From Breznakia blatticola (GTDB lineage: Bacteria; Bacillota_I; Bacilli_A; Erysipelotrichales; Erysipelotrichaceae), in assembly GCF_004365815.1 (NCBI RefSeq), contig NZ_SODD01000027.1:1-32000 (forward strand): a DNA stretch of 32,000 bases. Reading direction: 5' to 3'. Numbering within the stretch: position 1 is the first letter of the stretch; every line of letters starts with the position of its first letter. Shown here piece after piece: positions 12,314 through 32,000 of this stretch. Position numbers and translations under genes: made by a program. The notes below the pieces were generated by a model. It made no database searches and was not told the DNA's origin. It saw only the letters and a list, made by a program, of their open reading frames with translations.

Positions 12314-12331
12314 ATATTTGACCTCTTCTTT

Positions 12332-13246: not shown

Positions 13247-13255
13247 ACTATCTCC

Positions 13256-16774: not shown

Positions 16775-16789
16775 ACTGACCTCTCTTTC

Positions 16790-16798
16790 ATCATACCA
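16790..16798 (-). promoter_or_regulatory. Candidate extended -10 (TGGTATGAT) for the AraC-family gene
   Basis: TGnTATGAT on the minus strand, about 16 nt upstream of the ATG at 16774 and just downstream of the EIIBC terminator. No convincing -35. Confidence 0.3.
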
Positions 16799-16810
16799 AA
16801 TCTAAAATGG

Positions 16811-16835
16811 AAAAGGTGAAAGTTTTTCTTTCACC
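16811..16835 (-). terminator. Rho-independent terminator of the PTS EIIBC gene
   Basis: On the minus strand: GGTGAAAG-aaaaa-CTTTCACC (perfect 8 bp), then TTTTCCATTTT. It lies 14 nt after the stop at 16849. Confidence 0.6.
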
Positions 16836-16848
16836 TGATCGATTTGTA

Positions 16849-18231
16849 TTATACTTTTAATTTCTTTTCGACACTTTCGCTCCAACCAAACATGTACGTT
16901 AAACCAAAAGCTAAGACTAATGAAGCAACTGCTCCTAATAATGCTCCATAGAATCCCATGTCAATTCCTGCTGGATTAATAAGTGCTGGAATACCTAAGA
17001 TTCCTGTACCAAATGTATATCCTTTTCCACCAAGTAGTGAAGCAATTAATCCTCCAAGTGCTCCTCCTGCTAAACCAAAGATAAATGGTTTTCTTGCTGG
17101 AACATTAATACCAAATAATGCTGGTTCTGTAATTCCAAATAATCCAGATACTGCTGAACCTACACAAACTTGTGTAACGGCTTTGTTTTTTGAACGCAAT
17201 CCGAATCCAAGTACTGCTCCAGTTTGTCCCATTGCAGAAGCAAAGAACACGATCGCAATTAATGGACAATATCCCATTGCTGCAAGATTTGCAATAAAGA
17301 TTGATGAGAATGCTTTACTTACTCCAAATAAAACAAGTAGTTGCCAAATTCCACCTACAAGTACTCCAGTGATTAATGGACTAAATGCATACAATGCTTG
17401 AATTGCATCAGTAATGAATGACATTACTGCAGTTAATACAGGCCCAATAATTAAGAATGCAAGTGGTGTTACTACACACAATACAATCATTGGCACAAAA
17501 ATCATCTTTAAAATATCTGGAACGATTTTTCTAGCAAACTTCTCAACGATTGCTGCCAAATATGTTGATAAAATAATTGGGAATACCGTTTTTGAATAAT
17601 TAACTAATGTTAATGGAAGAGCAAACAATGTTAACTGTTGTCCTTCATTTACCGCATTAATGATTTCAGGTGTGATCATTGCACATGCGATAATCATTGC
17701 ATAGAATGGTTTTCCACCGAATTTCTTAGCTGATGTATATGCTAAGAAGATCGGGAAGTAATAGAAGATTGCATTACTAATTGCATATAGCACTAGATAT
17801 GATCCACTCGTTGGATCTAACCATTTCAACATTACAAATAATGATAAGAACCCTTGTAGTGTACCACTTGCTGCTAACACACCAACGATAGGTACAAAGA
17901 TTGCCGAAGCAATATCCGTAATTTTATCAAGCAATGAAGCATTTTTATCTGTCTCTGAAGATACTTCTACTTCACCTCCAGCTTTTGCTGGATATATTTT
18001 AGCTGCTTCTTCATAGTAACTAGATACTGCATTACCAATCACTACTTGCAATTGTCCACCAGCATCGATGATTCCCATTACACCATCAGCTTTTGCAAGT
18101 TCTTCATCATTCACTTTCTTACGATCAACTAAAATAAATCGTAGTCGCGTAAAGCAATGACTAAATGATTGCACATTATCAATACCACCAACTAAATCGA
18201 TTATTGTTTTTACATTTTCTTTTACACTCAT
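16849..18231 (-). CDS. PTS EIIBC component, glucose superfamily, beta-glucoside/sucrose/trehalose branch
   Basis: N-terminal EIIB with phospho-cysteine motif SHCFTRLRF, followed by a multi-helix EIIC. No EIIA domain. Start set at ATG 18231 (MSVKENVKTII) with RBS AGAGGAGAG; the ORF-track start at 18282 is a GTG without an RBS. Confidence 0.9.
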   Translation of the reverse strand: MSVKENVKTIIDLVGGIDNVQSFSHCFTRLRFILVDRKKVNDEELAKADGVMGIIDAGGQLQVVIGNAVSSYYEEAAKIYPAKAGGEVEVSSETDKNASLLDKITDIASAIFVPIVGVLAASGTLQGFLSLFVMLKWLDPTSGSYLVLYAISNAIFYYFPIFLAYTSAKKFGGKPFYAMIIACAMITPEIINAVNEGQQLTLFALPLTLVNYSKTVFPIILSTYLAAIVEKFARKIVPDILKMIFVPMIVLCVVTPLAFLIIGPVLTAVMSFITDAIQALYAFSPLITGVLVGGIWQLLVLFGVSKAFSSIFIANLAAMGYCPLIAIVFFASAMGQTGAVLGFGLRSKNKAVTQVCVGSAVSGLFGITEPALFGINVPARKPFIFGLAGGALGGLIASLLGGKGYTFGTGILGIPALINPAGIDMGFYGALLGAVASLVLAFGLTYMFGWSESVEKKLKV

Positions 18232-18316
18232 ATTATCTCTCCTCTTTGTGAAATCAAGTTTGTCTAATTTGTTTTCTAACACACTGATACTTATGTTGAA
18301 TCAAGACCTCCTTTTG

Positions 18317-18572: not shown

Positions 18573-18589
18573 TATAATCCTTAATATAA

Positions 18590-18620
18590 AAAATCTACAC
18601 CATCTCTTGGCATAGATTTT
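18590..18620 (-). terminator. Hairpin terminator after the membrane-anchored HAD gene
   Basis: AAAATCTA (18590-18597) pairs with TAGATTTT (18613-18620), with an inner CCA/TGG pairing. A T-run follows on the minus strand. It starts 4 nt after the stop at 18624. Confidence 0.45.
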
Positions 18621-18623
18621 CTT

Positions 18624-19625
18624 TTATATACATTGAATGACAATCAATACAATCCACAACAAACCTAGTGTAATATTTTGAATTACCTTGTTTTTATATA
18701 GTGGATCTTTGTATCGATCACGATACCGATTATAACTTTGTTTAAAAAAGAATAGAGAAATATAAAAATAGCTTACATAAAGTGGAAAACAGTATAATGA
18801 AATACCTAGTCCAATAAGATATAACAAGATCTTCCAATGCATATTCAAAATAGGTTTTTGTCGTTTATCCAAATGTTCATTAATAATGTCTGAGACATCA
18901 TCAACTATTGCACTAGCTATTGACTTCACTTCTTCGTTTCCAATATTCATCGCATATCCGTGAAAGATTTCAATCATTTGTTTATCGTTTCCGCCATCTC
19001 CAACAACAAGAACTTTATCACTCTTAGGTAAATGATGATCCAACAACCATTGTAATGATGTTGCCTTGTTATCGTGTAATCCATTTACATCGATTGTTTC
19101 AATATTTGGATGAAAAGATACTTCACTACCATACGCCTCTCGTAATAATTTCGTGGCTGTTTTCACTTTATCATATGTATCAAAGCGCATATCTATTCCA
19201 TAATAATCATATTTTTCAATTTCATCGAGTTCAATTTCTTTCGTGTAATAATTATAAGTGCTTGCAGCTTCATTATCACTTTCAACTACCATACGCTCAA
19301 ATCCAGCAGATAAAATATAATATACACTACTTCGCACGATTGGATCACATATGATTTTCTTTGCCAAACTTCCTGGAAACTTTGCTTCATAGATAGGCTT
19401 ATACGCACTGTTATACACAACTGAACCATTATTACATACTGCAAAATGAAATGGGATTTTGTATTTGTCTATATCTTTTTTCAACGTCAAAATATCTCGT
19501 CCAGTCACAAAGATGAAGATATTTCCTGCATCTATCCAATTTGTAATTGCATCTACTGTTTTTTTCTTTATTTCACCTTTCGAATTTGTTAGTGTTCCAT
19601 CCACATCACTTGCTAATACTTTCAT
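18624..19625 (-). CDS. Cof-type HAD-IIB phosphatase with a C-terminal membrane anchor (2-3 predicted TM helices)
   Basis: 333 aa with HAD motif I (ASDVDGTLT) and motif IV (VGDGGNDKQM). About aa 264-333 (18627-18836) are strongly hydrophobic: WKILLYLIGLGISLYCFPLYVSYFYISLFFF and ITLGLLWIVLIVIQCI. RBS AAAGGAGG. Confidence 0.8.
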   Translation of the reverse strand: MKVLASDVDGTLTNSKGEIKKKTVDAITNWIDAGNIFIFVTGRDILTLKKDIDKYKIPFHFAVCNNGSVVYNSAYKPIYEAKFPGSLAKKIICDPIVRSSVYYILSAGFERMVVESDNEAASTYNYYTKEIELDEIEKYDYYGIDMRFDTYDKVKTATKLLREAYGSEVSFHPNIETIDVNGLHDNKATSLQWLLDHHLPKSDKVLVVGDGGNDKQMIEIFHGYAMNIGNEEVKSIASAIVDDVSDIINEHLDKRQKPILNMHWKILLYLIGLGISLYCFPLYVSYFYISLFFFKQSYNRYRDRYKDPLYKNKVIQNITLGLLWIVLIVIQCI

Positions 19626-19638: not shown

Positions 19639-19665
19639 AAAAAAGGTAGGTTGACCTACCCTTTT
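19639..19665 (-). terminator. Intra-operon hairpin terminator/attenuator between dhaL and the HAD gene
   Basis: On the minus strand: GGTAGG-tcaa-CCTACC with an A/U extension, followed by TTTTTT. The 5' arm overlaps the dhaL stop codon. The HAD gene's RBS follows immediately. Confidence 0.55.
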
Positions 19666-20273
19666 ACACTGATTTCAAATGCTTCAAATAATAATACAGC
19701 TACATATGCTCCTGGATCTAGTAAATCTCTAGAAGCTTCTCCTCTTGTTGCTGCACGTCCATGTTTGGCAATCATTGTCGCAGTTTGTTCATATCCTTGT
19801 CTAGCTGCTTTACTTGCTTTACTTGCTAATTGCGCTAATGGAAGTTCTATGTTTTCTTTTAATACTTGAACTGCTGGATCAATTCCATCAATAAATGTTT
19901 TTTCACCAACGTTTGCCTTACCTCGATTGATAACACCTGCTTCAAAACTGTCAAAGAACTGCACCCAGTTTTCATTTGTAAGTTCATTTTGATTTCGTAA
20001 ATCTTTTCCTGCTTGCATCAAACCAGAAGCCATAAGCGTTCCCATCGTTGATGGCACTGCACTTGCCATGGCTTTTCCACCAGCATATACAAGTTTTCCT
20101 AGATCTTGTTCATCAGTATCTTTGACTGCAAGATATGCAGCACGAAATCCATCTGACATAGTAAGTCCTAAATCTCCATCACCAACAATTTGATCCATTT
20201 CGATAAGTGTATCTTTATTTTCTTGCATGATGTTAGCAACAACTTCAAGATATCGTTTCATGTCTTGTAACAT
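19656..20273 (-). CDS. dhaL: Dihydroxyacetone kinase L (nucleotide-binding) subunit, copy 1
   Basis: 205 aa with the DhaL signature VGDGDLGLTMSDGF (Mg-binding Asp cluster), in an all-helical Dak2-sized protein. Confidence 0.85.
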   Translation of the reverse strand: MLQDMKRYLEVVANIMQENKDTLIEMDQIVGDGDLGLTMSDGFRAAYLAVKDTDEQDLGKLVYAGGKAMASAVPSTMGTLMASGLMQAGKDLRNQNELTNENWVQFFDSFEAGVINRGKANVGEKTFIDGIDPAVQVLKENIELPLAQLASKASKAARQGYEQTATMIAKHGRAATRGEASRDLLDPGAYVAVLLFEAFEISVKG

Positions 20274-20281
20274 ATTGCCTC

Positions 20282-21292
20282 CTACATTTGTTTGAAGAAT
20301 GGCGTGTTGACTGGATAGTCAATCAATGGTTTAAGTTCTTCATCAACTTTGAGTAGTGAAATCGAAACACCTGACATTTCAAGTGCTGTTGCATATTCAC
20401 CTACATAATAACGATACGCTTTAATGCCTTTTTCTTTTAAAATCGCATCAATTTTTCTTGTAACGATGTATTGTTCATCTAGTGGAGTTGCACCTAATCC
20501 ATTAACAAGAACAGCAACTTCATCACCTTCAACATATGGTAAATCCGCAAGAATTTGTTGCATCATTTCTTCTGTGATTTGATCTGCACTTTCTAACTGA
20601 CCACGGCGAATTCCTGTTTCACCATGTATTCCCATACCGATTTCCATTTCATTTTCTTCAATGGAGAATCCCGCTTTTCCAACTCTTGGAACTACACATG
20701 CACTTAAGGCAACACCCATCGTGCGTACATTATCTGCTGCTTTTTGGGCAATTCGGGTAACGGTTTCTAAATCGTACATTTTTGCTGCCGCTGCTCCTGC
20801 ACATTTATAGACAAAGAAAATTCCAGCCACACCTCTACGTGTGCTTTTTTCTCCTGGTGCACTTGGTCCAGCACTAGCTACATCATCGGCTCCAAGCACA
20901 GTTGTCACTTGAATATTTTCTTCAAAGTCGGCCATTTCTGTAGCCATATCAAAGTTAAAGATATCCCCATTATAGTTTCCATAAATGTAAAGAACTCCTG
21001 CACCTTGATCAATGTCTTTGGTAATTTCAAACATCTGTTCTGCTGAAGGAGATTGAAATACATCACCTACTGCACAACCATCAAGCATCCCATCACCAAC
21101 ATAACCTAGAAATAATGGTAAGTGTCCAGATCCACCACCAGTAGAAATCCCTACTTTTCCTGGTGTTTTATTTTTTGTGACATAACACTGAAGATCATCA
21201 TTTACACAAGTTACTTGATCTTGATGTGCAATATAAATCCCTTCTAACATTTCTTTTAGATAGTTTTCTGGATTGTTTATAATCTTTTTCAT
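20282..21292 (-). CDS. dhaK: Dihydroxyacetone kinase K (substrate-binding) subunit, copy 1 (divergent GSGHLP motif)
   Basis: 336 aa, colinear with recalled E. coli DhaK: GGGSGHLP (canonical is GGGSGHEP), NYNGDIFNF, RRGVAG, EMEIGMGIHGETG, NGLGATP. Confidence 0.85.
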   Translation of the reverse strand: MKKIINNPENYLKEMLEGIYIAHQDQVTCVNDDLQCYVTKNKTPGKVGISTGGGSGHLPLFLGYVGDGMLDGCAVGDVFQSPSAEQMFEITKDIDQGAGVLYIYGNYNGDIFNFDMATEMADFEENIQVTTVLGADDVASAGPSAPGEKSTRRGVAGIFFVYKCAGAAAAKMYDLETVTRIAQKAADNVRTMGVALSACVVPRVGKAGFSIEENEMEIGMGIHGETGIRRGQLESADQITEEMMQQILADLPYVEGDEVAVLVNGLGATPLDEQYIVTRKIDAILKEKGIKAYRYYVGEYATALEMSGVSISLLKVDEELKPLIDYPVNTPFFKQM

Positions 21293-21299
21293 ATAGAAC

Positions 21300-21962
21300 C
21301 TACTTTAGTGTAATTTCTTTTGGATACGCCCAACTTTGTAATTCTTCTGCTGGGAAGAATTCAGGTTCTTTACCATTTAATGCAGTTAATGTATTGTAGT
21401 AAAGTTGTGCAAGTTCTTCAATATACGCTGCTTTTAAATACGCTTCATAAATATCATTTGCATCACATGCAACTGCTCCATGACCTTTCATTAAGAAACA
21501 ATCCGCTTCTTTTACTGGCTCGACGGCTGTTTCTGCTAGTTCTGGAGTTCCAGGACGACCATATGCAGCAACTGGTACACGACCTTTTGATAACCCCATA
21601 GTTGCAACTTCATAAACAATTGCTGGTAATGGTTTATTTAATACTGCAAACGTTGTTGCATACATAGAGTGTGTATGCGCAATTGCTACTACATCTTCTC
21701 TTGTTTCATATATTTTTAAATGCATAAGTGATTCACTTGTTGGACGTAATCCAGATAAGTTTTCAATTACCACTGCATTCATATCCATTACAATCATATC
21801 TCTAGGTGTCAACAATTCACGGTCAACACTTGTCGGTGTAATTACAACATAACCAGTTTCTTTATCACGAGCGGAAAAGTTTCCTGATTTATGTTTACAT
21901 AAGCCATCTTTTTGTGCGCGTTTTGCGATTTCACACACATCTTTCTTTAAAGCTTCTAACAT
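21300..21962 (-). CDS. Class II aldolase/adducin-family protein, FucA-like (ketose-1-phosphate aldolase type)
   Basis: 220 aa, colinear with recalled E. coli FucA. PTSESLMH carries Glu77 (FucA Glu73; the epimerase AraD has Asp here). Zinc histidines AHTHS and KGHGAV are present, and AIVYEV carries a Tyr matching FucA Tyr113. Confidence 0.75.
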   Translation of the reverse strand: MLEALKKDVCEIAKRAQKDGLCKHKSGNFSARDKETGYVVITPTSVDRELLTPRDMIVMDMNAVVIENLSGLRPTSESLMHLKIYETREDVVAIAHTHSMYATTFAVLNKPLPAIVYEVATMGLSKGRVPVAAYGRPGTPELAETAVEPVKEADCFLMKGHGAVACDANDIYEAYLKAAYIEELAQLYYNTLTALNGKEPEFFPAEELQSWAYPKEITLK

Positions 21963-21970
21963 AGTTCCTC

Positions 21971-24034
21971 CTATTTTATTAATATGTTAAGCATTTGGTC
22001 AACATCACTTGCTCGACGCAATGCTTTCATTTTCGTTTCATTCTCTGTTATTTCAATAAACTGAAATAATGGGTTTAAGTGTTTGGTACGATCTGGTGTT
22101 GCTAGTACTACAATCATATCCGCTTCTAAATAATCAAAGATCGGAATACGTTTTGGTAATCGTAAAAGTCCCATTGCAACTTCATTTACCCCATCATCAA
22201 TTCCTGCATGTGCCACGATGACACCATCAGCAATCGCAATATATGGTTTATCTTGTTCTATCGAATCAATCATTTTCTTTACATAACGAGATTCAATATC
22301 TCCTTGATCGAGTAAGGGTTTAGCTGCCTTTTCAATGGCTTGTTGCCATGAAAGTTCCTCATGTTCTACTTGAACGGTTTTCGTTGTTAGAATATCTGCA
22401 AGCGACAACTCTATTCCTTCTTGATGTACAACTTTTTGTGTAGGTAAAGAAGGATCTTGAAATAAGTACTGTTGTAAGTCTTTCATCATCTGTTCATTAT
22501 CATCGACTTGAGCATGTTTTCTAACAATATCCATAATCTCAGATAAGTTGATGCGATGTGGTTTAATTCCACTTAAGCTTCCCATCACCTTTTCTCTAAA
22601 ACGTTGTTTTGCATAATCATTTAGAAATGGCTTTACTAAATATTGTGGTTTTTCACTATCCAAACGTACCGTTGTAAAAATCAAATCGTATGGTTTGTCA
22701 TATTCTTCAAATGCACGAATCGATAAACAATCCTTGAATTCGATCTCTGGTAATAATTCAGATAGTGTGACATATAAATAGTTGGATACTGTCACACCGT
22801 TTGAACAAATTACAATCGCTTTTTTCTTTTCCTCAATGATCTCAAGATTTCCTTCTTTTTTTAGCCACGCTCCAAAAAGCACAGTTAAATACACAAGTTC
22901 ATCATCAACGATTTCACTTCCTACAAATGCTGCAAACGGTTGACTTGCTCGTCGTACCATTTCATGCAGTTGGGCATGTTGTGGTAAGACCATATCAATT
23001 GCACTATTTTCGATATGAAATTGATACTTCATTCGATAATATGCAGGCTTACAGTGTTGCACTAATGCTTCTAGTAGTGCGGATTTTCCTTGAATTTGGA
23101 CCAAGGAAATCTCTTCAAAGCGTTCAATCATATCAAATGCTGCATCAGTAATTTGCTTTTCAACTTCCACATCATCCGTACGCATTGAACTCACATTTGA
23201 ACTTTGAATTTGTGCTGCAATAAACATCCGTTCTAACTGATTTTCTACGGCATATTTTTGCACAAGAATATTGGTTGCTGTATATTCACTAGTTCCAACA
23301 ATATGTTGAAATGATTCAGCAATTGCATCCAATAATTTACCTTGTTTGATGCGACGTAAAATCAAGTATAGAATAAATGGTAATTCTTCCAAGCGCTCAT
23401 CTGTGAATTTGATATTTAGCTTATCCTCGATCAACATAATCGATTCATACACAGATGCAAATTCTGCTTCTTCAATATTACAGATTTTCTTTATGACACA
23501 AGCTCCATTTGGCATTAGTAATACTTTGCGAATCGCCGTGATTAAACTTTCACGTTTCGCAAACTCGCTTCCTGTCATTCGATATCCATCTTTTCTTGAA
23601 TAATGCACATCTACTTTGTAATTTCGACATAAGGTTTGTTGCAGCTTTTTTAGATCCAGTAAGAATGTATTCTTACTAATATTGAGTTCGTATGTAAAAT
23701 CAGCAGTGGATAATTCTTCTTGGCGGCATAGTAAAAGAAGCACAATTAAATACTGTCTTTCTTTATCTGAATATGTATAATCAGCTTCTTCTAGGTTGAA
23801 GTTTTCGGTCTTATATTCATCAATAACTGGTGCTGGAATTTGAAACTTTCCTGTTTTTAAACGTTCAATACATTCAAATCCATTATCCATAAGATAATCA
23901 TTTACTTTCTCAAGCGAATAACTCAGTTGCTTTCTTGATAAATCAAGCATGTCTTGTAATTGCTTTCCAGTAATTGTTGGATTATCTACGATTTGTAATA
24001 AGACATTACGACTTCTTTCATCCAAATATGCCAT
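21971..24034 (-). CDS. PRD-domain PTS-controlled transcriptional regulator (MtlR/LicR/ManR-like activator)
   Basis: 687 aa with N-terminal winged-helix/HTH regions and central PRD-sized helical repeats. An EIIB(Gat)-like segment carries a Cys (AIVICSNGVTVSNYL). The C-terminus is an EIIA(Mtl/Fru)-like domain (VIVAHAGIDDG...VVLATPD). No sigma-54 AAA+ module. Confidence 0.8.
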   Translation of the reverse strand: MAYLDERSRNVLLQIVDNPTITGKQLQDMLDLSRKQLSYSLEKVNDYLMDNGFECIERLKTGKFQIPAPVIDEYKTENFNLEEADYTYSDKERQYLIVLLLLCRQEELSTADFTYELNISKNTFLLDLKKLQQTLCRNYKVDVHYSRKDGYRMTGSEFAKRESLITAIRKVLLMPNGACVIKKICNIEEAEFASVYESIMLIEDKLNIKFTDERLEELPFILYLILRRIKQGKLLDAIAESFQHIVGTSEYTATNILVQKYAVENQLERMFIAAQIQSSNVSSMRTDDVEVEKQITDAAFDMIERFEEISLVQIQGKSALLEALVQHCKPAYYRMKYQFHIENSAIDMVLPQHAQLHEMVRRASQPFAAFVGSEIVDDELVYLTVLFGAWLKKEGNLEIIEEKKKAIVICSNGVTVSNYLYVTLSELLPEIEFKDCLSIRAFEEYDKPYDLIFTTVRLDSEKPQYLVKPFLNDYAKQRFREKVMGSLSGIKPHRINLSEIMDIVRKHAQVDDNEQMMKDLQQYLFQDPSLPTQKVVHQEGIELSLADILTTKTVQVEHEELSWQQAIEKAAKPLLDQGDIESRYVKKMIDSIEQDKPYIAIADGVIVAHAGIDDGVNEVAMGLLRLPKRIPIFDYLEADMIVVLATPDRTKHLNPLFQFIEITENETKMKALRRASDVDQMLNILIK

Positions 24035-24053
24035 CCTTACCCCCTGTTTCTAT

Positions 24054-25061
24054 TTATACGCGTAAACCCATACTATCTGCTTCAACTTCAAGTAATTCAT
24101 GGAGTTCATCATCCATACGCATGATGGTTAATGCAGCTCCATTCATATCTAGTGAGGTTACATAATTACCAACCAACACTTTATCAATATTGATATTTCT
24201 TGCTTGAAGTTCACTTTCAATATCATTATACAATACGTAAAGTTCCATAATTGGTGTTGCTCCTAAACCAGAGACAATCACAGAAAGTGTTTCATCTGCT
24301 TTCACTTCCAAATCATCAACTACAGCTTTTACCATATCTTTTGCAATATCTTTTGCACTTTTTAAATCTTCCACATGCATGCCTGGTTCTCCATGGTGTC
24401 CAATTCCAAATTCCATTTTTCCTTCATCAATATGGAAGTTTGGTTTTCCTACTGCAGGAATGGTACATGAAGATAATCCCACACAAATACTGCGTGTTTG
24501 ATTCACTGTTTTTTGTGCGACGCGAATGACTTCATCAAGAGTAGCTCCTTGACTTGCCTTTGCCCCTGCAACTTTCCACATGAATACACCACCAGCTATA
24601 CCGTGACGTTTTTCTTTTGTCTCTTTTGGTGAAGATGATACATCGTCTGTTGCAACAACGTATTTTACTTCTACTCCTTCATCTAGACACATGTCGACTG
24701 CCATTTTTACATTCATGTTATCTCCAGCGTAGTTACCAAATAAACAAGCAACCCCATTTCCACTATCAACACTCATAAATGCATCATAGAACGCTTGTGC
24801 TGGTGGAGAAGAAAATACTTCTCCAACCGCTACTGCATCAAGCATTTGGTGTCCTACATAGCCAAGAAATGCTGGCTCATGTCCACTTCCACCACCACTA
24901 ACAAGTCCGACCTTGCTAGCAATTGGTGCTGCTTTTAACTTCATAACATGATCATTTTCACTTAATATTTCTAACTCTGGACGAGCTTTTTCAATACCTT
25001 TCATCATATCTTCAACGATGAAATCGGCATGATTCACAAATCTTTGCATACTATAACCCAC
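24054..25061 (-). CDS. dhaK: Dihydroxyacetone kinase K subunit, copy 2 (canonical motifs)
   Basis: 335 aa with GGGSGHEPAFLGYVG, NYAGDNMNV, RHGIAG, KMEFGIGHHGEPG and SGLGATP. Confidence 0.88.
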   Translation of the reverse strand: MGYSMQRFVNHADFIVEDMMKGIEKARPELEILSENDHVMKLKAAPIASKVGLVSGGGSGHEPAFLGYVGHQMLDAVAVGEVFSSPPAQAFYDAFMSVDSGNGVACLFGNYAGDNMNVKMAVDMCLDEGVEVKYVVATDDVSSSPKETKEKRHGIAGGVFMWKVAGAKASQGATLDEVIRVAQKTVNQTRSICVGLSSCTIPAVGKPNFHIDEGKMEFGIGHHGEPGMHVEDLKSAKDIAKDMVKAVVDDLEVKADETLSVIVSGLGATPIMELYVLYNDIESELQARNINIDKVLVGNYVTSLDMNGAALTIMRMDDELHELLEVEADSMGLRV

Positions 25062-25697
25062 CTATCTTAATAACTTCTTGCAGCCATCAGCAAACGACTC
25101 AAGAATGAGTTGTGCACTTGTTGCTCCAGCATCTTGATGACCTTTTGAACGTTCTCCAAGTCTTGATGCGCGTCCAAGTTTTGCCACCATATGTTTTGTT
25201 GCTTCAAGCCCTGCTTGTGATGCCCCAACCATTTCAGTTAACGCTTTATTTACATCTTGTGATGCATCAAATTCTTTATGATATGCGTAAATTGCAGGAT
25301 CTAATACATCAACTAATGTTTTATCATTCACTTTTGCTGGTGATATCTTTTTAATATTGTCATATGCTTTATCTAGCATTTCACCAATGATTTGACCATC
25401 GATTTCTTCATGTTGTTTACTAGCAACATATAGGCCACGAAAGAAATTTCCGTATAATGGACCCATACTTCCTCCAATTTTACTCATAAGCATTTTACTA
25501 ATGATTTGAAAACCTGTACTCATATTTTCTTTACCAGTTAATGCTTCTTTTGCTAGTGTAAAGCCTTTATTCATGTTAATTCCATGATCACCATCACCAA
25601 TTGCACCGTCGATTTCGCTTAAGTAATCACGATTTTTTTGAATACATGCAATGATGGTTTCAACTATTTCAATTCCTTCTTGATTCGTAAACTTCAT
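25062..25697 (-). CDS. dhaL: Dihydroxyacetone kinase L subunit, copy 2
   Basis: 211 aa with IGDGDHGINMNKGF. Directly abuts dhaK copy 2, in L-then-K order. Confidence 0.85.
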   Translation of the reverse strand: MKFTNQEGIEIVETIIACIQKNRDYLSEIDGAIGDGDHGINMNKGFTLAKEALTGKENMSTGFQIISKMLMSKIGGSMGPLYGNFFRGLYVASKQHEEIDGQIIGEMLDKAYDNIKKISPAKVNDKTLVDVLDPAIYAYHKEFDASQDVNKALTEMVGASQAGLEATKHMVAKLGRASRLGERSKGHQDAGATSAQLILESFADGCKKLLR

Positions 25698-25698
25698 A

Positions 25699-27069
25699 TT
25701 ACGCTCTTTCTGCTGCTGCTACTTCTTTTGCGTTTTTTGCTTCTCTACGTAATTCACGGTAGTACATTGTGTATCCTGCTAACCAAGCTACAAGTACAAC
25801 CACTGGGATAAAGTTTCCATTTACTACATCAAATACTTGTGAAATTCCGTATGTAAATACTGGACCATCAATTGATGAGTTTGAAATCATTTGTCCTGCT
25901 GCTAAATCAACAGCACCTGTTGCGTTTGCTAAGTCTGTAATAAATGGTGCAAATGCTGTACCAATCCATAAGAAGCATGGAACTCCGATTGTACAAAGAA
26001 TTAACATTCTTGGTAAGTTTCCTTTTGTTACTAAGTATGCAGGTACTGCTAATGCAATATTGATAATTCCAGCAAATGGTAAGATTTCGTTTCCTGGTAA
26101 AATCATAGACATTAATAAGGTTACTGGCACTGACCAAATAACTGCTAACCAAATTTCATTTGATCCACCTAGGAATGGCCAGTCAAGACCAACAATTAAA
26201 CTTCTTCCTTCGAAACGTTTGTTCATAAAGTCACTAACCGCTTCAGAAATTGGTGATAATGCTTGCATAAAGTATTTTGAAATCACTGGGAATAATGTTA
26301 ATGCAGTTGCAGCTTGAACTCCTAACGTTAAGATTTCAGCTGGACTCCATTTTGCCATGATTCCAAATACACATCCTAAGATAAATCCAAGTACGTGGTT
26401 TTCTGCAAAGATACCAACTTTTTCTTTTAATGCTTCCGCATCAAAGTCTTTGTTGAATGCAGGAATTTTACGTAATAATAAATCGAATGGGTATAAAATT
26501 GCTCCAAAGAATACCATTTTGTGTGTACAAGTAACTCCAGGAATTCCTGATAATTCTTCAATACGGTGTGAGTGTACATCTGCTGTTTTAAGTTCAAAGA
26601 TAATTTGAATTGTAGCAACTACAAATGCTAAAGGTACACTATCTGTAATGGCAACAACACAAACTGCAGTAAAGATTTTCCCCCATACATTCCATAAATC
26701 TGCATTGAATGTTTCTGTTTTCTTTAACACGATCATAATAATGTTCACAACGATAAGTAATGGGAACATTAAGAATGCATATGGCCATGACCATGAGATT
26801 GTCGATAATGTTGTCCATCCACCATCAACAATTGGTAATGAAATACCTGTTGATTCTAACATTGCTTCTGCTGCTGGTGAAATTGCCCCAGTCATAAAAC
26901 TAATAAGCATTGACATTCCGGTAAATGCAACCCCTAATGTAATACCTGCAGAGATTGCATCTTTCACTTTCATACGAACAAGCAATCCTGCAAAAATGAT
27001 GATAATTGGTACGAATACTGCTGCCCCTAAACTAAGTAGCCAGTTAACTACATTTTGTAAAATATCCAT
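25699..27069 (-). CDS. PTS EIIC component, galactitol (Gat) family
   Basis: 456-aa polytopic membrane protein. Its size and sequence style match GatC/SgcC-type EIIC, and it is preceded by Gat-type EIIB and Mtl/Fru-type EIIA genes. Confidence 0.8.
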   Translation of the reverse strand: MDILQNVVNWLLSLGAAVFVPIIIIFAGLLVRMKVKDAISAGITLGVAFTGMSMLISFMTGAISPAAEAMLESTGISLPIVDGGWTTLSTISWSWPYAFLMFPLLIVVNIIMIVLKKTETFNADLWNVWGKIFTAVCVVAITDSVPLAFVVATIQIIFELKTADVHSHRIEELSGIPGVTCTHKMVFFGAILYPFDLLLRKIPAFNKDFDAEALKEKVGIFAENHVLGFILGCVFGIMAKWSPAEILTLGVQAATALTLFPVISKYFMQALSPISEAVSDFMNKRFEGRSLIVGLDWPFLGGSNEIWLAVIWSVPVTLLMSMILPGNEILPFAGIINIALAVPAYLVTKGNLPRMLILCTIGVPCFLWIGTAFAPFITDLANATGAVDLAAGQMISNSSIDGPVFTYGISQVFDVVNGNFIPVVVLVAWLAGYTMYYRELRREAKNAKEVAAAERA

Positions 27070-27099
27070 AAATTTAAACTCTCCTCTTTTGTTTTCTTA

Positions 27100-27381
27100 T
27101 TAGCCATTATTCACGGCATCAATTAGTCTTTGTAATTCCTCTTTTTGTTTCATTCCTGTAAGAAATGCAATTCCATTGATTACTGGAATTGGATATTCCT
27201 TATTTGTTTTCGTAATTGCAATGTATGCAACCGCATCCGTCAAATGACGATCCACAGATTTTAAGTCTACCGCTTCTACTTTTGCGTCAACTTTATTTTC
27301 TTTTAGTAAACGATTTACTTTACTTGCTACGGTTTGTGAAGTTGCTACTCCACTACCACAAGCCACGATTATTTTTTTCAT
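27100..27381 (-). CDS. PTS EIIB component, galactitol/lactose-type
   Basis: 93 aa with N-terminal KIIVACGSGVATS (phospho-cysteine loop). Confidence 0.85.
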   Translation of the reverse strand: MKKIIVACGSGVATSQTVASKVNRLLKENKVDAKVEAVDLKSVDRHLTDAVAYIAITKTNKEYPIPVINGIAFLTGMKQKEELQRLIDAVNNG

Positions 27382-27389
27382 AGTCCCTC

Positions 27390-27857
27390 CTAATCGAATC
27401 CTTTTATATTGATTATTTCTTGATAATATTCATCTACTGTTTTTGCATTGAGTAAACGATCCATCAAATCTTGATCCTGCAGATTATCAACTAGGAGTTG
27501 CAACATTTCCACATGTCCATCACCTTTTATGAATCCAAGAACAAAGATTAGTTGAACGTCATGCCATACATCACTGGTTGCCATTTCACACCAAGCAATT
27601 GGTTTTGCTAGTCGAACTGCTGCAACAAATGGGGTGATAATATGTACTGCATCCGCATGCGGTATCGCAATTGGATATGGTTGCGTTGGTAAGCCTGTTG
27701 GGTATGCTTCTTCCCTTGTTACCAATGCTTGATAATATGTTTCCTTCACAAATCCTTTGGCAAAAAGTATTTCACTCATTTTCGCAAAGAAATCATTTTG
27801 ATTTTCTACCTGCATATCTAGTTGAATCAGGTCTTTGATAATCATTGAACTGTCCAT
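27390..27857 (-). CDS. PTS EIIA component, mannitol/fructose (EIIA-2) type
   Basis: 155 aa with phospho-histidine motif IAIPHAD. First gene of the operon, with RBS AAAGGAGAG. Confidence 0.85.
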   Translation of the reverse strand: MDSSMIIKDLIQLDMQVENQNDFFAKMSEILFAKGFVKETYYQALVTREEAYPTGLPTQPYPIAIPHADAVHIITPFVAAVRLAKPIAWCEMATSDVWHDVQLIFVLGFIKGDGHVEMLQLLVDNLQDQDLMDRLLNAKTVDEYYQEIINIKGFD

Positions 27858-27918: not shown

Positions 27919-27947
27919 ATTATATGAGTAGAAACATTTTCAGGCAA
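27919..27947 (-). promoter_or_regulatory. Candidate sigma-A promoter of the Gat-PTS/Dha operon
   Basis: On the minus strand: TTGCCT (27942-27947)-17 nt-TATAAT (27919-27924). The predicted leader is about 55 nt. Confidence 0.5.
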
Positions 27948-27966: not shown

Positions 27967-27986
27967 ATGCACAACACAATGTGCAA
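27967..27986. promoter_or_regulatory. Inverted repeat upstream of the -35; candidate operator for the PRD activator
   Basis: On the minus strand: TTGCACA-ttgtgt-TGTGCAT (core TGCACA-N6-TGTGCA), ending 20 nt upstream of the -35 hexamer. This is a class-I-activator-like position. Confidence 0.35.
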
Positions 27987-28033
27987 TACAGTGATGGGCG
28001 CTAAAGTTGCGCAACCTTGTGACGTAAAATCCA

Positions 28034-28071
28034 TAAAAAAATACCAAACTTTTCCATAAAGAATGGTATTT
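28034..28071 (-). terminator. Rho-independent terminator after the histidine phosphatase gene
   Basis: AAATACCA (28039-28046) pairs with TGGTATTT (28064-28071), with an inner CTTT/AAAG pairing. A T-run follows on the minus strand. Confidence 0.55.
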
Positions 28072-28082
28072 CTAATAAATTA

Positions 28083-28664
28083 TCACAAATTTTGATTCAT
28101 AATTTCGACTAAAGTAAACATGTCATGACCCCATGTTAATTTTAAGATACAGCAATTGCCAACACCAGTTTCCTTAATCGCTTCAAGACTAGGATCCATA
28201 TGACAAGTCTCTAAGAAATAAGCAATACTCACACCTGAACTTACAGCAAGTATGACTTGACTATCCCTATCATGGCAAACTTGTTGCAAATAATAGCTCA
28301 CTCTAGTTTTTACATCCTGTGCGCTTTCTCCACCAACTTTACTCGTTAATGTATCCCCATAAATATCTTGCTGACCTGCTCCTATATAGACTTCACCTTC
28401 TACTTCTCCATACCAACGTTCACGTAAATCTTTACTTCGTTGATATGGTTGATTTGGTGCAATATACTCCATTGTGTCACAACATCTTTCACTCGTGGAA
28501 CAAACAAGTGTATCAAAGTTTACATCTTTAAGTATTTCATGTGCCTGTTTGGCTTGTTTAATCCATTTATCTGTTAGTGGTGAATCACACCACCCTTGAA
28601 TCCGGTGCTGTACATTGAAGTACGTTTGTCCATGTCGAACTACATATAATGTTTTCATATACAA
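28083..28664 (-). CDS. Histidine phosphatase family protein (second copy in the window)
   Basis: 193 aa with N-terminal LYVVRHGQTYFN (RHG motif) and STSERC. Monocistronic, lying between two terminators. Confidence 0.8.
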   Translation of the reverse strand: MYMKTLYVVRHGQTYFNVQHRIQGWCDSPLTDKWIKQAKQAHEILKDVNFDTLVCSTSERCCDTMEYIAPNQPYQRSKDLRERWYGEVEGEVYIGAGQQDIYGDTLTSKVGGESAQDVKTRVSYYLQQVCHDRDSQVILAVSSGVSIAYFLETCHMDPSLEAIKETGVGNCCILKLTWGHDMFTLVEIMNQNL

Positions 28665-28795: not shown

Positions 28796-29542
28796 TTATG
28801 TATGTAATGCATCAACAAAGTCGATAACTGCTTGTTTGTCTACACATTCATAATCAAGTTCGTGATTCTTCGCATATCCATACGATACCTGTTTTGCTTT
28901 TGCTGTAAGATCTCTTTTCCATGTTTTACATGATGCATGTACTTGCTGCAACTGCGTCTTTTCAAGTACTTGCTTTACATTATCTGCACGCAAACCTACA
29001 CCACCTAAGATTTCGATTTGCTTGCCATATGTATTTTGTAGGTAGGCTAGTGTCTCAATTCCGGTAATAGCAGTTTCACCTTGTCCACTTGTTAGTACAC
29101 GATCCACCTTACAATTTATAAGTGTACGCATTGCTTCATCAATATCTTGTATGACATCAAATGCACGATGTACAACAGCTTGTCCACCATACTTATGAAT
29201 CAAATCACAAAATTCTTTTGTGCGTGCAGCATCAATTGTAAAATCTTCATTTAGAAATCCAAACACAATTGCTTCTACACCTTCTTGTAATAACAACTGT
29301 GCATCTTGTTTCATCACTTCATATTCTTCATTTGTATAATGAAATCCACCAGCTCTAGGACGCACCATAGCTGCAATTGGCAATGAAATATGTTGTTTTA
29401 CTAATTTCACTGTTCCCATACTTGGCGTTAGTCCACCTAAATATAATGCACTATTTAACTCAATACGGTTTGCCCCACCTGCTTGTGCAGCCAAACAATC
29501 TTCATAACTTCCTGCACATACTTCAAAAATTATATCTTTCAT
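28796..29542 (-). CDS. cutC: CutC-family protein (TIM-barrel; historical 'copper homeostasis' annotation, true function unclear)
   Basis: 248 aa. The N-terminus EVCAGSYEDCLAAQAGGANRIELNSALYLGGLTPS matches the recalled CutC signature. Confidence 0.85.
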   Translation of the reverse strand: MKDIIFEVCAGSYEDCLAAQAGGANRIELNSALYLGGLTPSMGTVKLVKQHISLPIAAMVRPRAGGFHYTNEEYEVMKQDAQLLLQEGVEAIVFGFLNEDFTIDAARTKEFCDLIHKYGGQAVVHRAFDVIQDIDEAMRTLINCKVDRVLTSGQGETAITGIETLAYLQNTYGKQIEILGGVGLRADNVKQVLEKTQLQQVHASCKTWKRDLTAKAKQVSYGYAKNHELDYECVDKQAVIDFVDALHT

Positions 29543-29556
29543 GGTTCCTCACTTTA

Positions 29557-29597
29557 TTTTGCATACAAAATGCAAAAGACAGAATTGCTTCCGTCTT
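29557..29597 (-). terminator. Two overlapping hairpins between the SIS gene and cutC (possible partial terminator)
   Basis: TTTTGCAT (29557-29564) pairs with ATGCAAAA (29570-29577), and AAGAC (29576-29580) pairs with GTCTT (29593-29597) with an inner GAA/TTC. The two share 2 nt. The U-tract on the minus strand is interrupted. Confidence 0.35.
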
Positions 29598-29599
29598 CT

Positions 29600-30334
29600 T
29601 TACTTGGTATATAAACGTGCGTATTTTTTCATGAAGGCATCATTTTTTTCAAATCCTCCATCAACATTTGCACTCACGAACACTTCAACTTCTTGTCCAT
29701 TTTGAGCTAGCGTACTTGCGCAAACTACACTGATTGCACCACAAATAAATGCATTGGCAATCGATGATGTTGGATACATTGGAATATCGATTCCTTCAAA
29801 ATAACTCGCTGCATCCCCTTTTTGTCCGCAGTTATCAATAACAATATCTGCAACTTCTAGTAAACGCTTGTTGTGTTTATTACGTGGCTTTGTTTCCATT
29901 GAATGGTGTACGTTAGTAATTGCAATGACGGTTGCTTTACGTCTTTTTGCTTCAACTGCAACTTCTACTGGATATGGATTTCTTCCAGAGTTACTTGCAA
30001 TTAAAACAACATCACCTTCTTGAATATCAAATAAATCGACAAGTAGATCCCCATATCCATCAAGATTTTCAATTAGGGAACTCTTTGTTGGGTGCTCATT
30101 TAGTGTTAATTCTGTAGGCATCATTGGCACCACAAAAGCAAGCCCTCCTGCACGCCCATAAAACTCTTCAGCTACAGAATGTGAATGTCCACTTCCCGTC
30201 ACTAAAAAGCGATGTCCTGCACTATGCGCATTAGCAATAGCAATTCCAGCTTCTTCGATTGCCTTTGCTTGTGTATCCTTAATCTTATGTACAACGTCTA
30301 AACCAATACTAAATGTCTGCTCAACTAGTTTCAT
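29600..30334 (-). CDS. SIS-domain protein (UPF0309-type sugar isomerase-domain protein)
   Basis: 244 aa with FLVTGSGHSHSVAEE and LIASNSGRNPYPVE, typical SIS phosphosugar-binding segments. Confidence 0.8.
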   Translation of the reverse strand: MKLVEQTFSIGLDVVHKIKDTQAKAIEEAGIAIANAHSAGHRFLVTGSGHSHSVAEEFYGRAGGLAFVVPMMPTELTLNEHPTKSSLIENLDGYGDLLVDLFDIQEGDVVLIASNSGRNPYPVEVAVEAKRRKATVIAITNVHHSMETKPRNKHNKRLLEVADIVIDNCGQKGDAASYFEGIDIPMYPTSSIANAFICGAISVVCASTLAQNGQEVEVFVSANVDGGFEKNDAFMKKYARLYTK

Positions 30335-30343
30335 AAGTTTCTC

Positions 30344-31144
30344 CTATTTTAAGATTTCAAAATGTTTACAGGCTTCATAGATTCCATTTTTACCACATGG
30401 TTTTGTCACAAAGTCTGCTTTTGCTTTTACTTCATCGACAGCATTGCCCATTGCAACACCAATCCCACATGTTTCAATCATACTTAAATCATTATAGTTA
30501 TCACCAAAGGCTATCGCTTGTTCCATCGTGCATCCAATATGCTCACAAATATGTGCGATGGCGTTTGCTTTACTTGTCTTCTTTGGGTGAATATCAAATC
30601 CATTTCCAAAGAACTTATCAAATTGTAAGTGTGGATACTTCGGTTTGATTTGTTTAAAGATGCTCGGTTCAACACGACTCACTGCAGCTAAAGGTAAACT
30701 TTGCTTATGTCGTGTTTTCTTTTTTCGATGATCTTCAAAATTACCCCAACGACCTAGCAAGATCATCAAACGATTTTGCAAAGGAAGTTTTCCTGCATAT
30801 AAATATCCTTTTTCAGGAAATTGAAATTGTAAATATTGTTTGAAGTGCGTGAAATCTTGGACAAGATTTTCTGTATCCTGTTTCGATAATGGTTCACTAT
30901 ACAATTCATGAAATGCATGATCCATGATATAGGTTCCGTTCAAACAAATATAATAATCAAATGTGAAATACTGTGATAGTTTTTCTTTTACGAAATATGG
31001 TGGACGTCCACTTGCAATTGCAAGTTTAATTCCCTGTTCACGTAACTTATTTAGACAGTTCAAATCATCTTCTTCAATTCGATGTGTTATATGGTTAAAC
31101 AAGGTTCCATCAACATCAAATGCAGCTATTTTTATATCTTTCAT
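30344..31144 (-). CDS. Cof-type HAD-IIB phosphatase (soluble)
   Basis: 266 aa with motif I (AAFDVDGTLF) and motif IV (FGDNYNDLSM). Confidence 0.85.
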   Translation of the reverse strand: MKDIKIAAFDVDGTLFNHITHRIEEDDLNCLNKLREQGIKLAIASGRPPYFVKEKLSQYFTFDYYICLNGTYIMDHAFHELYSEPLSKQDTENLVQDFTHFKQYLQFQFPEKGYLYAGKLPLQNRLMILLGRWGNFEDHRKKKTRHKQSLPLAAVSRVEPSIFKQIKPKYPHLQFDKFFGNGFDIHPKKTSKANAIAHICEHIGCTMEQAIAFGDNYNDLSMIETCGIGVAMGNAVDEVKAKADFVTKPCGKNGIYEACKHFEILK

Positions 31145-31159
31145 ACTTTACTATCACAA

Positions 31160-32000
31160 CTATTTCTTGTGATATAACTTTTGCGTTCTAAATTTCGGTG
31201 AACATGTGTAATTCATTTTTAAACGGTTAAAGACATTTTCATCATCTTTTCTTAAGATTACCGTAGAGTGTACTTCACATCCTTGAAGTTTCTTTAATTG
31301 TTGCATGGCAAGCTCTGCAACTGGGTTTGTTGTTGCACTTACTGCAAGCATGACAAGCATTTCACCTGCATGAATACGTGGATTATTATTTCCAAGTATA
31401 TCCGTTTTTAGTTTTTGGACTGGCTCAATAACCGATGGCGAGATCAATGGTAAACGATCATCAATTCCACCAAGTGCTTTTGCGGCATTTAATAAAGCTG
31501 CTGAACTTGCACGTAGTAGAGTCGATGTTTTCCCTGTGATTAAACGACCATCAGGTAGTTCAATTGCGACTGCTGGTTCATCTGTCTCGATTGATTTTGC
31601 TTCACTTGCTCCAACCACCTTACGGTTACTTGGTTTAAGATTTGCTTGGTTCATCAACATTTCAATTTTTTGAATGGCTTCTTTTGAACCTGTTCCCAAA
31701 CGTTCATTTACTAGTGATTGATAGTAACGACGTAAGATTTCTTTATTGGCTGCATCTTGTGCAGCATCATCATTTTCAATTGCATACCCTGCCATATTTA
31801 CACCCATATCCGTTGGGCTTTTATATGGCGATACACCATTGATGTTTTCAAACATACGACGCAACACTGGGAATACTTCTACATCACGGTTATAGGAAAC
31901 AACCGCTTCTCCATATGCTTCTAAATGGAATGGGTCAATCATATTTACATCATCAAGTTCTGCAGTAGCTGCTTCATATGCTAAGTTAACTGGATGCTTT
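31160..32000 (-). CDS. DUF1846/UPF0371-family protein, 5'-truncated by the window edge
   Basis: The reading frame stays open upstream of the listed ATG (31942) to position 32000 (…KHPVNLAYEAATAELDDVNMIDPFHLE…). The C-terminal region resembles recalled UPF0371 proteins, which are about 500 aa in full length. Confidence 0.7.
   Translation of the reverse strand, partial: KHPVNLAYEAATAELDDVNMIDPFHLEAYGEAVVSYNRDVEVFPVLRRMFENINGVSPYKSPTDMGVNMAGYAIENDDAAQDAANKEILRRYYQSLVNERLGTGSKEAIQKIEMLMNQANLKPSNRKVVGASEAKSIETDEPAVAIELPDGRLITGKTSTLLRASSAALLNAAKALGGIDDRLPLISPSVIEPVQKLKTDILGNNNPRIHAGEMLVMLAVSATTNPVAELAMQQLKKLQGCEVHSTVILRKDDENVFNRLKMNYTCSPKFRTQKLYHKK

Follow-up and report, generated by a model that had tools for sequence, protein, structure and literature searches.

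Several described systems split sugars into triose phosphates with enzymes that resemble those of the operon reported here. In hepatic fructolysis (ketohexokinase, aldolase B and triokinase, TKFC), a ketose-1-phosphate is cleaved to dihydroxyacetone phosphate (DHAP) and glyceraldehyde, and the triokinase belongs to the dihydroxyacetone kinase (DAK) family (PMC6429413 for TKFC). E. coli FucA (fucA, PF00596) and its homologues of the 5-deoxyribulose-1-phosphate aldolase type (PDB 6btd) are class II aldolases that split a ketose-1-phosphate into DHAP and an aldehyde, while DhaKLM of E. coli and Lactococcus lactis is the reference for split DAKs. The galactitol/tagatose pathway (gatABC-gatD-gatYZ) combines Gat-type EIIA, EIIB and EIIC of the phosphotransferase system (PTS) with a PRD/BglG-type regulator and an aldolase that gives triose phosphates, and the Listeria operon lmo2093-2099, itself uncharacterised, carries a Gat PTS, a PfkB kinase and the FucA-family aldolase Lmo2094 (PMC3721983). 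In a 32,000-nucleotide (nt) stretch of Breznakia blatticola DNA (contig NZ_SODD01000027.1, positions 1 to 32,000; hereafter the window), we analysed an operon in which a Gat-family PTS is encoded together with a FucA-like class II aldolase (ALD) and two DhaK/DhaL pairs. Gene context and conserved residues make PTS-fed, aldolase-based ketose catabolism, similar in logic to fructolysis, the best available model for this operon, although we hold it with rather less than even confidence.

Open reading frames and profile matches place ten genes on the minus strand between positions 18624 and 27857, packed with gaps of 0-30 nt (Table 1), and these genes constitute a single operon bracketed by terminators. 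A preliminary description of this DNA, made from the letters and translations, had listed nine of them; all nine were recovered on the minus strand at the same coordinates, their families were upheld by Pfam and NCBIfam, and both the tight packing and the lack of a dehydrogenase, isomerase, conventional sugar kinase or glycerol gene in the operon were borne out. Its end of the operon at 19656 was placed too early, as the transcription unit runs one gene further, through a HAD/Cof gene (19625-18624) and then a terminator, and it had overlooked both this tenth gene and the phosphatases (His_Phos_1, GlpX, HAD) that recur around the cluster.

The combination of PTS, ALD and DAK is retained across distant hosts. 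ALD homologues with 72-86% identity occur in Erysipelotrichaceae, Lachnospiraceae and other Clostridia, and a scan of one genome per species recovered 64 loci with an ALD of at least 61% identity, after which identity falls abruptly to 37%. Carriers belong to the Bacillota (Clostridia, Bacilli and Negativicutes) and the Actinomycetota, and include Erysipelotrichaceae, Lachnospiraceae, Oscillospiraceae, Sporolactobacillus, Selenomonadales and Coriobacteriia, along with the actinomycetes Brachybacterium, Dermabacter, Propioniciclava and Actinomyces. Gene content was compared across 68 loci with an ALD of at least 60% identity (67 fetched loci, numbered with the prefix L below, plus the window), and co-occurrence was counted in those 49 whose flanks extend for at least 5 kb upstream and at least 3 kb downstream. 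This count, which the preliminary description had suggested as a check, found a Gat EIIC in 44/49 loci, a DhaK with the signature described below in 39/49, and both in 38/49, the usual order being EIIA-EIIB-EIIC-(regulator)-ALD-(phosphatase)-DhaK-DhaL. A sister ALD clade (55-65% identity) is found in Clostridium, Propionispora and Gilliamella. Its Clostridium (L085, GCA_001705235.1, 2313-11378) and Propionispora (L087) members have the order EIIA-EIIB-EIIC-ALD-DhaK-DhaL with a LevR-type sigma-54 activator (Sigma54_activat-PRD-EIIA-Man-PRD), and the Gilliamella member combines EIIABC and ALD with a PRD/Mga-type regulator but has no DAK. That this trio has stayed together while host phylum and regulator type changed is strong evidence that Gat PTS, ALD and DAK serve one pathway. 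Minimal loci consisting of a regulator, ALD and EIIABC, with no DAK in the locus, were seen in Sporolactobacillus (four loci with full flanks), Gilliamella and L008. When the neighbouring open reading frames of the 68 loci were clustered, no further recurrent dehydrogenase, isomerase or hydrolase emerged besides phosphatases and occasional reductases.

A variant cluster is present in L014 (Absicoccus intestinalis) and, as a second copy, in L027 (Clostridiaceae bacterium OM02-2AC). Alongside a divergent Gat PTS and an ALD orthologue of 73-75% identity, it encodes a DhaK/DhaL pair with canonical motifs (GHEPAH), a Zn-dependent polyol-type dehydrogenase and a second, RhaD-like class II aldolase, with an rpoN-like sigma-54 gene inside the cluster. 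The variant looks like the same pathway fed by a polyol.

ALD forms an orthologous group distinct from previously curated members of its family. It reaches no NCBIfam equivalog cut-off (best score 138 bits vs 264; 101 bits against TIGR01086, cut-off 400; 73 bits against TIGR00760, cut-off 389), its nearest PDB entries are the FucA/aldolase structures 6btd and 4c24, and it aligns with E. coli FucA at 32% identity. Because the curated equivalog threshold is not reached, we do not consider ALD a FucA orthologue, nor does its context match that of an L-fuculose-phosphate aldolase proper: fucI, fucK, fucP and fucO are absent from the window and the related loci, and ALD is fed by a PTS rather than by an isomerase and a kinase. 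What ALD has in common with FucA is the fold, the zinc ligands (His96, His98 and His161, corresponding to FucA His92, His94 and His155), the phosphate pocket (Asn28, Thr44/Ser45 and Thr75/Ser76, aligned with Asn29, Thr43/Gly44 and Ser71/Ser72) and the catalytic residues Glu77, Tyr117 and Tyr213. The first two of these catalytic residues, which the preliminary description had already singled out, correspond to Glu73 and Tyr113 of FucA and to Asp and Thr of AraD, and Tyr213 is the equivalent of the C-terminal Tyr209 of FucA; all of these zinc, phosphate-pocket and catalytic residues are invariant among 23 members of both clades. The positions that define AraD are occupied differently, with Glu at the zinc ligand Asp76 and Thr or Asn at the catalytic acid/base Asp120, and the earlier argument from residues against an epimerase was therefore correct. 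On the evidence of these alignments, ALD resembles FucA and not AraD at each of the catalytic positions, and it probably catalyses the same type of reaction as FucA, from ketose-1-phosphate to DHAP and an aldehyde.

Other residues set ALD apart from FucA. A family-specific Cys22-Lys23-His24 signature precedes the phosphate-binding Asn, Trp211 is a further ALD-specific residue, and the segment Tyr134-Gly-Arg136-Pro137 (YGRPG) replaces Tyr-Ala-Thr-Phe131 of FucA, with Arg136-Pro137 nearly invariant. In FucA, Thr130 and Phe131 line a hydrophobic aldehyde pocket, which accommodates the methyl group of lactaldehyde. An Arg-Pro pair in place of Thr-Phe thus suggests that the aldehyde moiety handled by ALD may be hydrophilic or anionic.

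The two DAK pairs of the operon share with DhaKLM the DhaK and DhaL folds and the main catalytic features: DhaK1 and DhaK2 both keep equivalents of the catalytic His56 and Asp109 and of the hemiaminal His218, and DhaL1 and DhaL2 both keep the Mg-ADP-binding Asp triad (D-x4-GDGD). Judging from their 37% identity, DhaK1 and DhaK2 are old paralogues. The second pair is the more canonical (GDGDHG and GGSMG in DhaL2, GHEPAF in DhaK2), and its distribution among the loci mapped is confined to Erysipelotrichaceae, Anaerostipes and a single Eubacteriaceae locus. DhaK1/DhaL1 is the pair that almost all clusters contain. DhaK1, in contrast to DhaKLM, has the signature GHLP[LV]FLGYVG where GHEPxH is usual, losing the conserved Glu of GHEP, and also carries GNYNGD, while DhaL1 has GDGDLG for GD[GA]DHG and xPSxxGT for the glycine-rich loop GGxSG. 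This signature was found in 43/43 DhaK1 and 41/41 DhaL1 orthologues as well as in the sister-clade Clostridium locus, and by these motifs DhaK1/DhaL1 is a distinct DAK subfamily that tracks ALD in both clades. The pairs also differ from DhaKLM in sitting in a sugar-PTS operon rather than in a glycerol/dihydroxyacetone (DHA) regulon, and in the absence of a DhaM gene from their loci: BLASTP with E. coli DhaM gave no match in the window or in 81 loci (L001-L081), which leaves room for a distant or remotely encoded DhaM, and in the Pfam-annotated loci PF03610 was found as a domain of LevR-type regulators and never as a free-standing protein. The DhaL alignment contains no diagnostic indel for the ADP 'cap' insertion, which we looked for as described in PMC9136124. 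Candidate phosphoryl donors are ATP, the EIIA/EIIB of the operon itself, or a DhaM with its gene elsewhere.

In six loci from Coriobacteriia and Solobacterium (L035, L036, L043, L045, L051 and L066), a fused DAK of ~565 aa (GHYPAFCG) follows DhaL1, and a multi-pass membrane protein of ~200 aa with no Pfam match lies between ALD and DhaK1, replacing His_Phos_1.

With a GatC-type EIIC, a Gat-type EIIB and a Mtl/Fru-type EIIA, the transporter has the composition of a Gat-family PTS (TC 4.A.5). EIIC matches GatC (PDB 9u82) over its full length (E = 7e-67), and its orthologues are 65-84% identical across phyla; EIIB has its N-terminal Cys within the motif ACGSGVATS, and EIIA, whose best NCBIfam match is galactitol IIA, contains an AIPH histidine motif. 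Galactitol specificity is not indicated, as EIIA, EIIB and EIIC each stay below the relevant galactitol equivalog or subfamily cut-off (for EIIC, 276 bits against TIGR00827, cut-off 542; for EIIA, below the cut-off of galactitol IIA) and no locus examined encodes gatD or gatY/Z. Unlike the gat and Listeria operons, this cluster lacks the GatD dehydrogenase, GatY/Z (class II FBA family) and a PfkB kinase, and DAK pairs occupy the position of the kinase. Orthologues of the PRD regulator lie between EIIC and ALD in most Bacillota loci and are replaced elsewhere by regulators of the DeoR or LevR/sigma-54 type. Five Erysipelotrichaceae loci (L001, L002, L005, L018 and L029) have a tandem EIIB pair before EIIC, with ~80% and ~50% identity to the EIIB of the window; that the extra EIIB might serve as phosphoryl donor for DAK, DhaM being absent, is pure speculation.

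Table 1. Positions of the genes and signals of the operon and its borders within the window.
Feature	Position	Strand	Evidence
Intrinsic terminator ending the operon	18578..18626	-	Hairpin -15.6 kcal/mol, z = -5.5, followed by T-run
HAD-IIB/Cof-type sugar phosphatase (tenth gene)	18624..19625	-	PF08282; TIGR01484 above cut-off; C-terminal transmembrane segments
DhaL1, cluster-specific DhaL subfamily	19656..20273	-	PF02734; TIGR02365 131 bits vs cut-off 138.3
DhaK1, cluster-specific DhaK subfamily	20282..21292	-	PF02733; TIGR02363 379 bits vs cut-off 406
ALD, FucA-like class II (zinc) aldolase, distinct orthologous group	21300..21962	-	PF00596, E = 3.6e-45
PRD regulator (HTH_11/Mga - PRD - EIIA2), MtlR/LicR-like	21971..24034	-	Domain matches
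DhaK2, substrate-binding subunit of second DAK	24054..25061	-	PF02733; TIGR02363 356 bits vs cut-off 406
DhaL2, nucleotide-binding subunit of second DAK	25062..25697	-	PF02734; TIGR02365 169.7 bits, above cut-off 138.3
PTS EIIC, galactitol (Gat) family	25699..27069	-	PF03611, E = 5e-67
PTS EIIB (Gat/Lac/Cel type)	27100..27381	-	PF02302; galactitol IIB below cut-off
PTS EIIA (Mtl/Fru/Gat type)	27390..27857	-	PF00359, E = 1.4e-30
Sigma-70-like promoter (candidate)	27919..27947	-	TTGCCT-17-TATAAT, 10/12 consensus matches
Inverted repeat TTGCACA-N6-TGTGCA	27968..27985	-	Just upstream of the -35 hexamer
Terminator of upstream His_Phos_1 gene	28030-28082		Hairpin scan
His_Phos_1 (phosphoglycerate-mutase-family) phosphatase, separate unit	28083..28664	-	PF00300; own terminator; just upstream of the operon

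Phosphatases and, less often, reductases adjoin the cluster. The tenth gene of the operon starts 30 nt past dhaL1 and has a homologue downstream of the cluster in another Breznakia locus (L004). A His_Phos_1 gene, which in the window is a separate unit, lies within the cluster directly after ALD in ~24 related loci, as one of two unrelated subtypes (213 aa in Lachnospiraceae and Actinomycetes, 210 aa in Erysipelotrichaceae), and is absent from the close relatives L013, L023 and L025; the nearest PDB and NCBIfam matches of these proteins (the phosphoserine phosphatase PspA, CobC, PhoE and FBPase-2) are too distant for a substrate to be assigned. The Clostridium operon of L085 ends with a GlpX class II fructose-bisphosphatase (336 bits vs cut-off 259). 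Such repeated, independent recruitment indicates that phosphatases are functionally linked to the pathway. It is plausible that, with all carbon entering as triose phosphate, a gluconeogenic fructose-bisphosphatase is needed, as in glpFKX; alternatively, the phosphatases may relieve sugar-phosphate stress. A YqhD-like iron-containing alcohol dehydrogenase (Fe-ADH) gene directly follows ALD or the cluster in 5 loci, and a DkgA-like aldo-keto reductase gene follows EIIC in 2 Sporolactobacillus loci. The presence of broad-range aldehyde reductases beside the cluster points to a free, reactive aldehyde as a product. An FSA-like gene adjoins the cluster in L005 and L029.

In the model that we favour, the Gat-family EIIABC would import the sugar and phosphorylate the primary hydroxyl beside its keto group to yield a ketose-1-phosphate, which ALD, given its conserved residues, would cleave to DHAP and a hydrophilic hydroxy-aldehyde, most simply glyceraldehyde. 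The co-evolving DhaK1/DhaL1 would then act as a triokinase, converting the aldehyde into a glycolytic triose phosphate, so that all carbon would join metabolism at this level, while the PRD/Mga-type regulator would tie expression to PTS phosphorylation, probably through the conserved palindrome that precedes the promoter. DAK-family enzymes are known to phosphorylate D-glyceraldehyde (PMC6429413). If the minimal PTS and ALD modules without DAK work, no enzyme is needed between PTS and ALD; the PTS would then probably feed ALD directly, which implies that its product is a ketose-1-phosphate. The logic is that of hepatic fructolysis, except that a PTS, and not ketohexokinase, would supply the 1-phosphate, the aldolase belongs to the FucA type of class II instead of class I, and the kinase is a divergent split DhaK/DhaL. 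A route of this kind had been put forward in the preliminary description, and the coherence and conservation of the unit, the FucA-like character of ALD and the existence of PTS and ALD loci all speak for it, although as first drawn it included neither the phosphatases nor the tenth gene.

A more specific version of this model is doubtful in our estimation: the Gat PTS would deliver a rare ketohexose-1-phosphate, with D-allulose (psicose) fitting, the new FucA-family aldolase would split it, and the DhaM-independent GHLP/GDGDLG split DAK would serve bacteria as a dedicated triokinase, for which the EIIA/EIIB of the operon itself might be the direct phosphoryl source. FucA-type (3R,4R) stereochemistry would fit D-psicose/allulose-1-phosphate, but this is speculation, as 32% identity does not allow stereochemistry to be inferred. 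Among seven gut species, C. innocuum was the only one that grew on D-allulose, a capacity credited by the authors to an AlsE homologue that works in E. coli, with no C. innocuum knockouts (PMC12216980). C. innocuum carries the full cluster, and its AlsE locus is not within 10 kb of it.

Several observations weigh against the fructolysis-like model. Some Lachnospiraceae encode an ALD orthologue alone, beside housekeeping genes (HtpG, copper ATPase, pyrophosphatase), and the model gives the phosphatases no defined role. It also leaves unexplained the need for a second DAK, of which there have been at least two acquisitions, one of a split pair (Erysipelotrichaceae and Anaerostipes) and one of the fused 565-aa protein (Coriobacteriia and Solobacterium). 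Split DhaK/DhaL kinases normally require DhaM, and none is encoded in the loci searched. Finally, known Gat systems phosphorylate a terminal hydroxyl far from the carbonyl (galactitol-1-phosphate, galactose-6-phosphate), which makes the ketose-1-phosphate product an assumption. Such action at the distal end of the sugar would agree with a bisphosphate route, in which DhaK1/DhaL1 would be an unconventional ketose-phosphate 1-kinase acting on a distally phosphorylated PTS product, and ALD would cleave the resulting ketose-1,n-bisphosphate to DHAP and an aldehyde phosphate such as glyceraldehyde-3-phosphate, by analogy with the tagatose-6-phosphate and galactitol pathways. We consider this route unlikely, even though it could make use of the extra conserved basic residues near the active-site segments of ALD (Lys23, His24 and Arg136), which could hold a second phosphate, of the absence from DhaK1 of the conserved Glu of GHEP, and of the bisphosphatase-type enzymes (GlpX, His_Phos_1) that recur as neighbours. 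It also has a parallel in Listeria lmo2093-2099, where a Gat PTS, a BglG-type regulator, a PfkB tagatose-6-phosphate/1-phosphofructokinase and a FucA-like aldolase occur together (PMC3721983), which hints that a kinase could precede the aldolase. Yet the substrate motifs of DhaK1 have gained no basic residues, PTS and ALD modules without any kinase would be non-functional, a bisphosphatase co-transcribed with the kinase would set up a futile cycle, and free-aldehyde reductases would be unexpected beside the cluster if both products were phosphorylated. To our knowledge, moreover, no DAK-family enzyme uses a sugar phosphate.

The regiochemistry of known Gat systems would equally suit a release of free DHA, with ALD holding the distal phosphate of a ketose-5/6-phosphate in the AraD orientation and yielding DHA and an aldehyde phosphate, in FSA-like chemistry on a FucA scaffold. 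DhaKL would then convert DHA, the textbook DAK substrate, into DHAP, in line with the canonical look of DhaK2/DhaL2 and the equivalog-level score of DhaL2, and the phosphatases and YqhD/DkgA-like reductases would acquire a role in removing a small aldehyde phosphate such as glycolaldehyde phosphate; an FSA-like gene does lie beside the cluster in L005 and L029. This reading seems improbable nonetheless, as ALD keeps the equivalents of FucA Glu73, Tyr113 and Tyr209 without AraD Asp120, the universally conserved kinase is the atypical DhaK1/DhaL1 and not the canonical pair, cleavage of a pentulose-5-phosphate would waste a potential substrate of the pentose phosphate pathway, and we know of no DHA-forming aldolase in PF00596. 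A different role for the canonical-looking pair would be compatible with any catalytic model: DhaL2-DhaK2 could be regulatory, sensing the triose product and modulating the PRD regulator, with DhaK1/DhaL1 as the only metabolic kinase. DhaL2-DhaK2 is invariably encoded between EIIC and the regulator gene, a second DAK is dispensable in most lineages, and DhaK and DhaL subunits are known transcriptional co-regulators, with DhaK and DhaL acting on DhaR in E. coli and DhaQ on DhaS in Lactococcus. DhaQ and DhaS are mentioned in PMC10746215. We nevertheless give this role little credence, because DhaK2 retains all catalytic residues and matches the DhaK model better than the DhaQ model (356 vs 238 bits), and Coriobacteriia add a fused ATP-type DAK with no regulator adjacent to it. 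Nor do we know of any PRD-type regulator under the control of DAK subunits.

Since DAK genes are usually linked to glycerol or DHA metabolism, one might also take the operon for an ordinary glycerol/DHA locus, or for a pentose/ascorbate-type route in which ALD would be a UlaF/AraD-like 4-epimerase leading into the pentose phosphate pathway. Class II aldolase-fold epimerases do accompany the ula and sgb PTS operons, and the second-best NCBIfam match of ALD is an 'L-ribulose-5-P 4-epimerase' subfamily. Both versions are highly improbable in view of the GatC-like, not UlaA-like, EIIC, the Glu in place of Asp at the zinc-ligand position of ALD and its lack of AraD Asp120, and because glycerol dehydrogenase, GlpF, DhaM, UlaD/E/G and other pentose phosphate pathway genes are neither in the operon nor recurrent in 60+ loci. 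An erythrulose/tetritol route of the M. smegmatis LerK/DerK type was rejected, there being no TIM-like or RpiB-like isomerase and no polyol dehydrogenase.

Regarding expression, the single promoter proposed in the preliminary description is present as a site, although its consensus match is no commoner than expected by chance: our scan found 47 promoter-like sites vs 44 expected from shuffled sequence, so the match alone is not significant. What supports this promoter is its position: it falls in the one intergenic region of any size, downstream of the terminator hairpin of the upstream gene. The inverted repeat next to it recurs at the same relative position in Breznakia L004 (3954-3971), and related palindromes (TTGCACATCATnGTGATGnGCAA) precede EIIA in other Erysipelotrichaceae loci, which makes the repeat a candidate operator for the operon's PRD/Mga-type activator. 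A scan had flagged this repeat as terminator-like, a reading that we rejected because the repeat has no T-run and is conserved upstream of EIIA in relatives; a candidate cre site overlapping the promoter was likewise dropped, its consensus match being too poor. A palindrome of the TTGCACA...TGTGCAA family is found ~105-130 nt before the EIIA start codon in the window and in L004, L001, L005, L018, L024, L029, L006, L009 and L019, and a further palindrome, short and GC-rich (GCGCGC or AGCGCT), is located in the 5' untranslated region, ~30-45 nt before that codon. The former is likely an activator site and the latter possibly a cre-like site.

Outside the operon, a cluster resembling C-glycoside deglycosidases lies on the minus strand of the window at 9769-14308, with neighbours at 7639-9737 and 14456-18282. 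Besides a CGDB beta subunit (PF19906, 10764-11198), it encodes two GFO/IDH/MocA oxidoreductases and two TIM-barrel proteins similar to xylose isomerase, and on its flanks are genes for a PTS EIIBC, an EIIA-Glc type protein and a ROK protein as well as another His_Phos_1 gene. It looks like the loci with which gut bacteria cleave C-glycosides (puerarin-type), and may here be fed by a PTS. The minus-strand gene at 14456-16774 encodes a 772-aa fusion of an AraC-type helix-turn-helix (residues 176-261) with a GH39-like domain (residues 316-738), which may be a regulator using its glycosidase-like domain as a sensor. Upstream of the operon and on the same strand, 28796-31942 encodes CutC, a SIS-domain protein, a Cof-type HAD phosphatase and a DUF1846 protein; homologues of the SIS protein (57% identity) and of Cof occur near ALD in a few other loci (L039, L008), inconsistently.

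A full-text literature search found no paper that characterises the cluster, the ALD group or the DhaM-less DhaK1/DhaL1 subfamily, and the papers on tagatose evolution in E. coli (PMC10101011) and on dhaKLM of group B Streptococcus (PMC10746215) are not about this cluster. All the protein families are thus known, whereas the combination of enzymes, the ALD orthologous group and the DhaM-less DAK subfamily appear to be without description in the literature found. If the fructolysis-like model is correct, the operon would represent a new bacterial route for ketoses, in which a PTS, a ketose-1-phosphate aldolase and a triokinase suffice and neither a dehydrogenase nor a second sugar kinase is needed. 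A DAK subfamily independent of DhaM would be defined. The model would also provide a function for a widespread, unannotated cluster of gut, oral, rumen, insect-gut and skin bacteria, and could account for the consumption of low-calorie 'rare sugar' sweeteners by some gut Bacillota.

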